A model generated the notes under the pieces. The model had not been told where the DNA came from and did not search any database. It saw only the letters and a list, made by a program, of their open reading frames with translations. A program made the translations under genes and the position numbers. From Candidatus Woesearchaeota archaeon (lineage in GTDB: Archaea; Nanobdellota; Nanobdellia; Woesearchaeales; UBA10216), in assembly GCA_002688315.1 (NCBI GenBank), contig NZCN01000015.1, positions 2,137 to 66,136 on the forward strand: 64,000 nucleotides of DNA, read 5' to 3'. Position 1 is the first letter of the stretch. Every line of letters begins with the position of its first letter. This document shows positions 143 to 31,255 of this stretch, piece by piece.

Positions 143-227
143 GGGCCTGTGATCTAGTGGCTATGATGTCGCCTTTACACGGCGAATATCCCCAGTTCGA
201 ATTTTAGCGAAAGTCTGGGCAGGCCCA
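143..227 (+). tRNA. tRNA-Val(UAC) with a 12-nt T-loop intron (202..213, position 59/60)
   Basis: Hand-folded cloverleaf. Acceptor GGGCCTG/CAGGCCC, anticodon stem TCGCC/GGCGA, loop TTTACAC. T-stem CCCAG/CTGGG enclosing TTCGAA + ttttagcgaaag + T. Discriminator A, no encoded CCA. Confidence 0.85.
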
Positions 228-776: not shown

Positions 777-944
777 GGGCCCGTAGCTCAGCTTGGTTAG
801 ATGGTGTGATTACATCACACTAGACGAAAGCGCCAGTCTTATATGGCTACGCTTTAGGACAGCTGGATGTCGCCAGTTCAAACGAGAAATCGGAGATTTC
901 TGGTATCCCAGAACTCCGGTTCTGTGATAATCTGGTCGGGCCCA
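777..944 (+). tRNA. tRNA-Ile(UAU) carrying three introns: D-arm about 802..829, anticodon 844..860 (37/38), T-loop 883..930 (59/60)
   Basis: Exons assemble into a 75-nt cloverleaf. Acceptor GGGCCCG/CGGGCCC, D-arm GCTC-AGCTTGGTTA-GA|GC, anticodon stem CCAGT/GCTGG, loop CTTATA|A, variable ATGTC, T-arm GCCAG-TTCAAA|T-CTGGT, A73. The anticodon intron gives a 4-bp BHB central helix CTTA/TAGG. Confidence 0.75.
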
Positions 945-3336: not shown

Positions 3337-3450
3337 GCCGGGATCGCATAATCTGGCATTGCGTAGCCCTGGAAACACGCATAGTCAGGCTATTTCCGTT
3401 GAGGATGTCTGGGTTCAAATTGCGAAAGCATGAAAGTCCCAGTCCCGGCG
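3337..3450 (+). tRNA. tRNA-Ser(GGA), class II, with two introns: anticodon 3375..3386 (37/38) and T-loop 3420..3436 (59/60)
   Basis: Acceptor GCCGGGA/TCCCGGC, G73, anticodon stem TAGCC/GGCTA, loop CTGGAA|A, long variable arm. T-arm CTGGG-TTCAAA|T-CCCAG. The T-loop intron contains a TGC-GAAA-GCA hairpin. Confidence 0.8.
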
Positions 3451-7411: not shown

Positions 7412-7706
7412 AACATAAAGAACTTTATAGAAGTTTAAATGGTTTTTGAATAAAAATTAAAAAAAAGGCGAAAGTGATAAACGCCTTAACTATACCAACA
7501 GTCTAAGAGTTGTAGAGTAGAGCTCATTAATAAACTTTTTGGAAATTAACCCGAAAATATTTTAATTTTGTTGGAAGATTTTCAGGAGCTTTAAATACGC
7601 TTTGAAAATTTCTACAGTAAAACCGTAAGATTTCTAAGTTTTCTGAAAATTTTGCGGAAAATCAGCAGTTGAACTTAATAAGAAGCAATAACAGAAATAG
7701 TAATAC

Positions 7707-30967: not shown

Positions 30968-31049
30968 CATGCCAAGGGAATGTGCAAAAATTTTATAAAC
31001 TATTATCAATCAAATAACTAATTCGACGAGGGATGATTGTGCTAGGCTT

Positions 31050-31118
31050 TGTGAGCCAGTCAGGGGACTCGACCCCCTGCTCGGGTTGTCAACTCTTTGC
31101 TCCATCCATTGAGCTACG
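31050..31118 (-). pseudogene. tRNA-like fragment (D-arm and T-arm recognisable, no foldable acceptor or anticodon stem)
   Basis: The minus strand reads TA-GCTC-AATGGATG-GAGC-A-AAGAG-TTGACAA... then AGGGG-GTCGAGT-CCCCT. The 5' AAGAG has no partner, and the 7 nt before TA do not pair with the 3' end. Confidence 0.4.
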
Positions 31119-31150: not shown

Positions 31151-31255
31151 TGGCGCCGCGGCTGGGGTTTTCGCCCAGAGATGAGTATCGAACCCAGATG
31201 CCTTCCCAGGCAGAGTGGTATCAACACTCCACGCTTCCAATTGCGCGTCCGCGGC
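31151..31255 (-). tRNA. class-II tRNA (long variable arm, G73, encoded CCA) with anticodon GAU and a 19-nt T-loop intron (31168..31186)
   Basis: Acceptor GCCGCGG/CCGCGGC, D-arm GCGC-AATTGGAA-GCGT. Perfect anticodon stem GAGTG/CACTC with loop TTGATAC (anticodon 31220..31222). Variable arm TGCC-TGGGAA-GGCA, T-arm CTGGG-TTCGAT|C-CCCAG with BHB central helix TTCG/CGAA, then G-CCA. Confidence 0.6.

Follow-up and report, generated by a model that had tools for sequence, protein, structure and literature searches.

The analysed stretch, hereafter the window, spans 64,000 nt (contig C15, positions 2137-66136) of a small Woesearchaeota-type DPANN archaeon, whose 912-kb genome (G000; 36.7% G+C, completeness score 99.7%) is distributed over 15 contigs (C1-C15). 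Four of the eight tRNA genes in the window are interrupted at one and the same T-loop position, between bases 59 and 60, by inserts of 12, 48, 17, and 19 nt, matching the preliminary description to the base. The genes and their predicted introns, in window coordinates, are as follows.

143-227, plus strand: tRNA-Val(UAC) gene including A73; the mature form is a 72-nt cloverleaf after intron removal
196-214, plus strand: T-loop of tRNA-Val(UAC), 19 nt; deletion of 202-213 leaves TTCGAAT
202-213, plus strand: predicted 59/60 intron of tRNA-Val(UAC), TTTTAGCGAAAG, 12 nt, without inner helix (BHL, relaxed hBH form)
777-944, plus strand: tRNA-Ile(UAU) gene with three predicted introns (D-loop, 801-828; 37/38, 844-860; 59/60, 883-930)
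883-930, plus strand: predicted 59/60 intron of tRNA-Ile(UAU), 48 nt, within T-loop 877-931; TTCA faces TGAT, forming three of four pairs
3337-3450, plus strand: tRNA-Ser(GGA) gene of class II with G73, containing two predicted introns, one of 12 nt at 37/38 (3375-3386) and one of 17 nt at 59/60
3420-3436, plus strand: predicted 59/60 intron of tRNA-Ser(GGA), TTGCGAAAGCATGAAAG, 17 nt; TTCA pairs with TGAA, and the inner hairpin TGC-GAAA-GCA gives the strict hBHBh' form
31151-31255, minus strand: class-II tRNA gene with anticodon GAU, G73, and encoded CCA, carrying a 19-nt predicted 59/60 intron
31168-31186, minus strand: predicted 59/60 intron of the GAU tRNA, ACTCATCTCTGGGCGAAAA, 19 nt; TTCG pairs with CGAA, with bulges AT/A and AA/C (slash, predicted junction) and a 4-bp inner helix

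In each gene, T-loop bases 54-57 face the four intron bases located 2 nt before the 3' junction, and a 5-bp T-stem flanks the insert as the outer helix, exactly as initially described. The central helix of Val(UAC) joins TTCG (196-199) to CGAA (208-211), bordered by bulges AA/T and AG/T, the 3' bulge lying at 212-214; its MFE fold contains the T-stem and all four central pairs. The Ser inner hairpin, the incomplete Ile helix, and the bulges of the Val and GAU tRNAs likewise emerged from parsing as described. A GCGAAA(G/A) element proposed as common to the introns dissolved into unrelated parts, being the TTCG-complementary strand plus an A-rich 3' bulge in the Val and GAU tRNAs and the inner hairpin in Ser. 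The acceptor stem of the GAU tRNA is shared with tRNA-Ser(GCU) on contig C5.

ARAGORN and Rfam together report four tRNAs in the window and 29 genome-wide, recognizing none of the four genes above. The T-loop inserts account for this failure, as their deletion restores ARAGORN recognition in 17 of 19 genes so treated. Because the genome is essentially complete, 29 tRNA genes are far too few. A scan requiring stems of 7 bp in the acceptor and 5 bp in the T-arm, with TTCRA opening the T-loop, yielded 19 genes with T-loops 19-55 nt long; a paralogue with one T-stem mismatch (C12:35275-35395) is the 20th gene with a 59/60 intron. Allowing for T-loop introns thus brings ~20 further tRNA genes into view beyond those from standard finders, and 49 were located altogether, 12 uninterrupted and 37 disrupted, some with up to three introns. 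Genome-wide tabulation, set beforehand as the check on a positional pattern, placed introns at 37/38 in at least 23 genes, at 59/60 in 20 (41% of 49), in the D-loop in five, near 30/31 in two, and at 53/54 in one, making 59/60 the second most used intron site after 37/38 and bearing out the pattern. The parse of the Lys(CUU) gene (C6:7115-7217) is incomplete. The tRNA scans did not locate genes for initiator Met, Ala(UGC), Pro(GGG), or Arg(CCG), which may be split, permuted, or stem-interrupted. DPANN annotation, and inferences about missing tRNAs or altered codes, depend on recognizing the 59/60 architecture.

Several tRNA loci merit separate description. Separate genes are present for all five Leu and four Ser isoacceptors. 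A further group of class-II G73 tRNAs bears anticodons outside the normal Ser/Leu set (UAU, GAU, UAA, or AAG) or an 8-nt anticodon loop, and lies at window positions 7706-7794 (plus strand) and 31151-31255 (minus strand) and at C2:101123-101230, C1:52293-52406, C12:52242-52354, and C12:35275-35395; three paralogues with a GCCGGCC acceptor strand carry AAG or the 8-nt loop. Adjoining the GAU tRNA is a tRNA-like remnant (window 31041-31117, minus strand; Rfam E = 0.2) composed of a D-arm, a T-arm (AGGGG GTCGAGT CCCCT), and the 3' acceptor strand GACTGGC, lacking a 5' acceptor strand and a pairing anticodon stem; considered as a split tRNA, it was set aside after a search for the 5' acceptor strand gave nothing convincing. 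Outside the window, tRNA-Ala(GGC) (C8:2222-2336, minus strand) contains two introns, one of 30 nt at 53/54, which is the second T-arm site known to hold introns, and one of 12 nt at 37/38; its predicted mature anticodon loop has U at position 37. Of two tRNA-His(GUG) genes (C12:96727-96827 and 102700-102769), one has weaker stems and a 30-nt 59/60 intron of the strict hBHBh' form, and the other is intron-free.

The 19 enlarged T-loops share one motif, in which the T-stem is followed by a 3-nt bulge, a 4-bp helix, and a second bulge or a loop (hBH or BHL). At the exact register, 72 of 76 central-helix pairs are formed, and the helix is complete (4/4) in 15 T-loops. Four-pair complementarity at other offsets of the same introns occurs in 6/363 placements, and 15 complete helices were not attained in any of 2000 shuffles of the introns. 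AG/T is the predominant 3' bulge and AA/N the predominant 5' bulge. In every case, the exon supplies the outer helix as the 5-bp T-stem, above the 2-bp minimum. Inner helices of at least 3 bp, defining the strict hBHBh' form, are present in seven introns, including those of Ser and the GAU tRNA, while the other 12 have 2 bp or fewer; of the 120 matches from related genomes, 68 have 1 bp or fewer. Most 59/60 introns thus lack an inner helix and are predicted to be relaxed BHL substrates; in the 12-14-nt introns of this kind, the 5' cut site would therefore fall in the hairpin loop (BHL, relaxed hBH). MFE folds contain both the T-stem and the central helix in 10 of 19 T-arms, which is weak evidence either way; the central helix is often absent from these folds because A/U-rich 4-bp helices (TTCA with TGAA) are marginal.

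Excision in silico gives a cloverleaf with a 7-nt T-loop. Upon deletion of loop positions 7 to n-1, ARAGORN recognizes a full-length tRNA in 17 of the 19 genes. Cloverleaf parsing by hand and by program gave concordant results, with sensible anticodons.

Base 57 and its intron partner covary. Within the genome, TTCG occurs with CGAA and TTCA with TGAA. Searching relatives with the pattern GTTCRAW-N(5-35)-YGAAAGTC, in which R and Y were left free, produced 120 distinct matches in 40 related genomes, with A-T in 82, G-C in 29, G-T in seven, and A-C in two, so that the mismatch class is nearly empty (Fisher p = 6e-19, the relatives not being independent).

The T-loop inserts are very probably BHB introns at position 59/60, spliced by EndA and the RtcB ligase and recurring through site geometry, duplication or conversion, and movement. 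In the precursor, T-loop bases 54-57 (TTCR) would pair with intron YGAA two bases before the 3' junction, with the 5-bp T-stem serving as the outer helix. The predicted 5' bulge comprises bases 58 and 59 and the first intron base, becoming part of the loop in the shortest introns, and the predicted 3' bulge comprises the last two intron bases and base 60. We infer that EndA cuts after the second base of each bulge and that RtcB joins the halves, which would return the T-loop to its normal length of 7 nt (TTCGAAT, TTCAAAT, and the like). Until its removal, the intron would block tertiary contacts between the T-loop and the D-loop. Counting against splicing are the lack in EndA of the loops found in N. 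equitans and ARMAN-2 and the relaxed BHL form of most introns.

The alternative that the inserts are kept, giving mature tRNAs with enlarged T-loops of 19-55 nt, draws on that same endonuclease, which lacks the loops linked to relaxed-motif cleavage, and appears highly improbable. It is contradicted by an exact BHB register maintained with compensatory changes, by lengths and sequences that vary freely save for the four pairing bases, and by orthologues with plain 7-nt loops. Conserved T-loop/D-loop contacts need bases 54-57 unpaired, and from established tRNA structure a T-loop in which they are paired could not make these contacts.

Splicing at 59/60 would use a local geometry already present in the anticodon arm. 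Sites 37/38 and 59/60 share an architecture consisting of a 5-bp stem, a 7-nt loop, and a predicted cut after the sixth loop base, and at both sites the first four loop bases pair with the intron. This equivalence would explain why 59/60 recurs and, since the pairing engages the conserved TTCR, predicts that such an intron works in any tRNA. It lends support to site preference, one of two causes offered in the preliminary description for the shared position. The modal intron size at 37/38 in this genome is also 12 nt. The 12-nt Val(UAC) intron, initially judged near the lower size limit for a BHB substrate, instead represents the commonest minimal size in the genome, 37/38 introns included, and 11-nt examples occur in relatives.

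Transposition, the second cause offered, finds support in a family of 48/49-nt introns. The Ile(UAU) 59/60 intron is identical at 46/48 positions to the intron of tRNA-Tyr on contig C3, whereas the Ile and Tyr mature tRNAs match at 45/74 positions and their T-stems differ. A 49-nt version occupies 59/60 in tRNA-Val(CAC) of one congener (G001) and tRNA-Gln(UUG) of another (G002), the two copies being identical. The family, 88-100% identical, thus extends over four tRNA species with unrelated T-stems and exons in three congeneric genomes. Its helix base is C in the Val(CAC) and Gln(UUG) copies, whose hosts have G57, and T in Ile and Tyr, whose hosts have A57. At least this one family appears to have moved recently between different tRNA genes, making the lineage a clean natural experiment in how tRNA introns are gained.

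A second family links the introns of Arg(UCG) and Glu(CUC), which are mutually related at 59/60 and have a 14-nt block, CTCACTGnCGTTCG, in common with the 37/38 intron of tRNA-Asn. The presence of this block at both sites suggests that introns have been exchanged between these geometrically equivalent positions.

Other similarities follow lines of gene descent. The Ser(GGA) intron has a paralogous counterpart in Ser(CGA) on contig C6, with 15/16 aligned bases identical. The Val(UAC) and Val(GAC) genes are identical outside the anticodon arm, with near-identical 12-nt introns. The Val(UAC) T-loop is intron-free, a plain 7-nt loop, in both congeners examined (2/2) and in eight further relatives, and Val(GAC) carries a 59/60 intron in four genomes, measuring 12, 15, 12, and 58 nt. 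The Val(UAC) intron therefore most likely derives from Val(GAC), through gene duplication or conversion instead of transposition.

On this reading, new intron copies arise by two routes, duplication or conversion among isoacceptors and movement between unrelated tRNA genes, the mechanism of the latter being our inference. A rival account, in which old intron-bearing genes were only passed on vertically and duplicated, the shared site reflects endonuclease and structural constraint alone, and nothing moves, fits the similar pairs confined to isoacceptors and paralogues (Val(UAC)/Val(GAC), Ser(GGA)/Ser(CGA), and the three GCCGGCC paralogues). It also fits the window itself, where the four introns, compared mutually, gave no score above the shuffled null. 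This account is nevertheless improbable, given the 48/49-nt family in unrelated hosts, the plain, intron-free T-loops that the Val(CAC) and Gln(UUG) orthologues have in this genome, and the block that the Arg(UCG)/Glu(CUC) family has in common with a 37/38 intron.

Directly after tRNA-Arg(GCG), at G000:C14:21420-21470, lies a partial second copy of the 3' end of that gene (...CCCGAGGGAGCA), enclosing a 20-nt stretch that matches the Asn 37/38 intron in reverse orientation.

The presence or absence of 59/60 introns differs among orthologues of close relatives. The Ile(UAU) T-loop intron measures 48, 15, or 31 nt across relatives or is absent, and orthologues without an insert show the uninterrupted 7-nt loop that splicing is predicted to produce. 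Matches to the narrow search pattern number 8-9 per genome in the genus and ~5 in the family. At the order level, they average 1.9 against a control of 1.0, with a patchy distribution in which some families reach 6-8, and other orders of the class show no excess of the narrow pattern.

A single EndA gene is encoded, running from the end of contig C5 (34471-34932) through the start of C13 (1-165); because the gene continues from one contig onto the other with overlapping end sequence, C5 and C13 are adjacent in the genome. The 175-aa, alpha-type protein possesses N- and C-terminal Pfam EndA domains and the Tyr/His/Lys triad, and is 66-82% identical to its counterparts in relatives deposited as Candidatus Woesearchaeota or Nanoarchaeota. 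Structurally, it best matches the catalytic subunit of the heterotetrameric N. equitans enzyme (3iey_A), and it also matches the M. jannaschii alpha4 enzyme (1a79), with which it aligns colinearly. Our alignments reveal no specificity-loop insertion of the L1/CSL, L2/ASL, or L3/N. equitans type, leaving gaps of six residues relative to the N. equitans loop and of seven and five residues relative to the two ARMAN-2 loops. The same compact, loop-less EndA is found in 29 relatives, its catalytic half almost invariant. Lysine K37, which aligns with ARMAN-2 K161, was considered as a substitute for the ASL loop and rejected, as the position is not conserved among these relatives. No link emerged between EndA sequence and how many T-loop introns a genome carries, the catalytic half being near-invariant across genomes with 0 to 9 pattern matches.

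The RtcB ligase is also encoded. Outside the window, the rtcB gene itself contains a BHB intron of 32 nt (G000:C14:44186-44217, minus strand) in the context ...GAAGGCT/CGATTGCC...CCCTTAG/ACGGA..., with a complete AAGG/CCTT central helix (4/4 pairs) and a 6-bp inner helix. With this intron deleted, the gene regains the conserved MPDAHEGYGFPIGGVA motif and a reading frame of 474 aa.

Cleavage at 59/60 could need an additional factor beyond the EndA homotetramer, such as a strongly diverged structural subunit, an RNA chaperone, or a protein that binds tRNA and presents the relaxed motif. Alpha4- and alpha'2-type EndAs without a specific loop cleave relaxed substrates (hBH/BHL) poorly in vitro (PMC3488258, PMC5829648), and the best structural match of the enzyme is one subunit of a heterotetramer. 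A search with Pfam and with phmmer --max over all six-frame ORFs of this near-complete genome, however, returned no second EndA-like gene, and each of the 38 related genomes with an EndA match has one locus, the two pieces in one of them (G036) being non-overlapping fragments on two contigs. We regard an additional factor as unlikely, although it keeps appreciable weight. Put forward tentatively, as less likely than not, is the proposal that in Woesearchaeota of this order a compact loop-less EndA of the homotetramer type routinely cuts relaxed BHL introns, constituting a fourth, as yet undescribed route to broad specificity, and that 59/60 is the main landing place for still-active mobile introns exchanging with 37/38. 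The landing-place role is proposed because 59/60 mimics the 37/38 site of the anticodon loop. If a loop-less, single-subunit EndA does cut relaxed substrates, the rule that loop insertions decide broad specificity needs revision.

The 59/60 BHB intron type is already known in archaea and is unusually common here. Its local geometry is identical to that of the canonical 37/38 intron, which also resembles it in the enzymes that would process it and in the 12-nt modal size in this genome, and differs in occupying the anticodon arm instead of the T-arm.

Among characterized systems, ARMAN-2 (Candidatus Micrarchaeum acidiphilum) provides a close parallel. The 13-nt hBH intron at 59/60 of its tRNA-Cys(GCA) is cleaved in vitro by the epsilon2 EndA (Fujishima et al. 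2011, PMC3239211), and its tRNA-Pro(GGG) has introns at both 53/54 and 59/60 (PMC3239211). The 59/60 cut requires the ASL loop (K161) of the epsilon2 enzyme and is barely made by A. fulgidus EndA (PMC3488258). Both organisms are DPANN archaea and share the 59/60 position, the relaxed hBH/BHL motif, the T-stem as outer helix, a similar intron size (13 nt versus 12-19 nt here), and an additional 53/54 intron, which here lies in Ala(GGC). They differ in extent and in enzyme: a few ARMAN-2 genes carry such introns and the EndA there is a three-unit epsilon2 enzyme, against 20 genes in the present genome, whose single EndA is a 175-aa alpha-type protein lacking the ASL loop.

Thermoproteales offer a parallel in abundance. 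Non-canonical and multiple tRNA introns are described in this group, along with large-scale transposition inferred from evidence like that presented here (Sugahara 2008; Fujishima 2010, via PMC4033280, PMC4090602). Common to both are a high share of disrupted genes (37/49 here), up to three introns per gene, and near-identical introns in tRNAs of different identity, indicating movement. Thermoproteales belong to TACK and possess a heterotetrameric EndA with the crenarchaeal loop, in contrast to the single loop-less alpha subunit of this DPANN archaeon, and their non-canonical introns are spread over many sites, whereas those described here are concentrated at 59/60.

A survey of DPANN archaea with alpha4-type EndA, whose sample includes one Woesearchaeota genome, reports many disrupted tRNA genes and explains the cleavage of relaxed motifs by the loop insertions L1-L3 (Kaneta et al. 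2018, PMC5829648). As in the present genome, disrupted tRNA genes are numerous there, and standard tools fail to recover the complete tRNA set. Broad specificity is tied in that survey to the L3 loop, whereas in our alignments with M. jannaschii the EndAs of this genome and of 29 relatives show no insertion there. As far as our literature search extended, three features extend what has been published: a single non-canonical site that dominates, occupied in 41% of genes; direct evidence of a currently mobile intron family in DPANN; and, in the alignments made here, an EndA without an insertion at any of the three loop sites.
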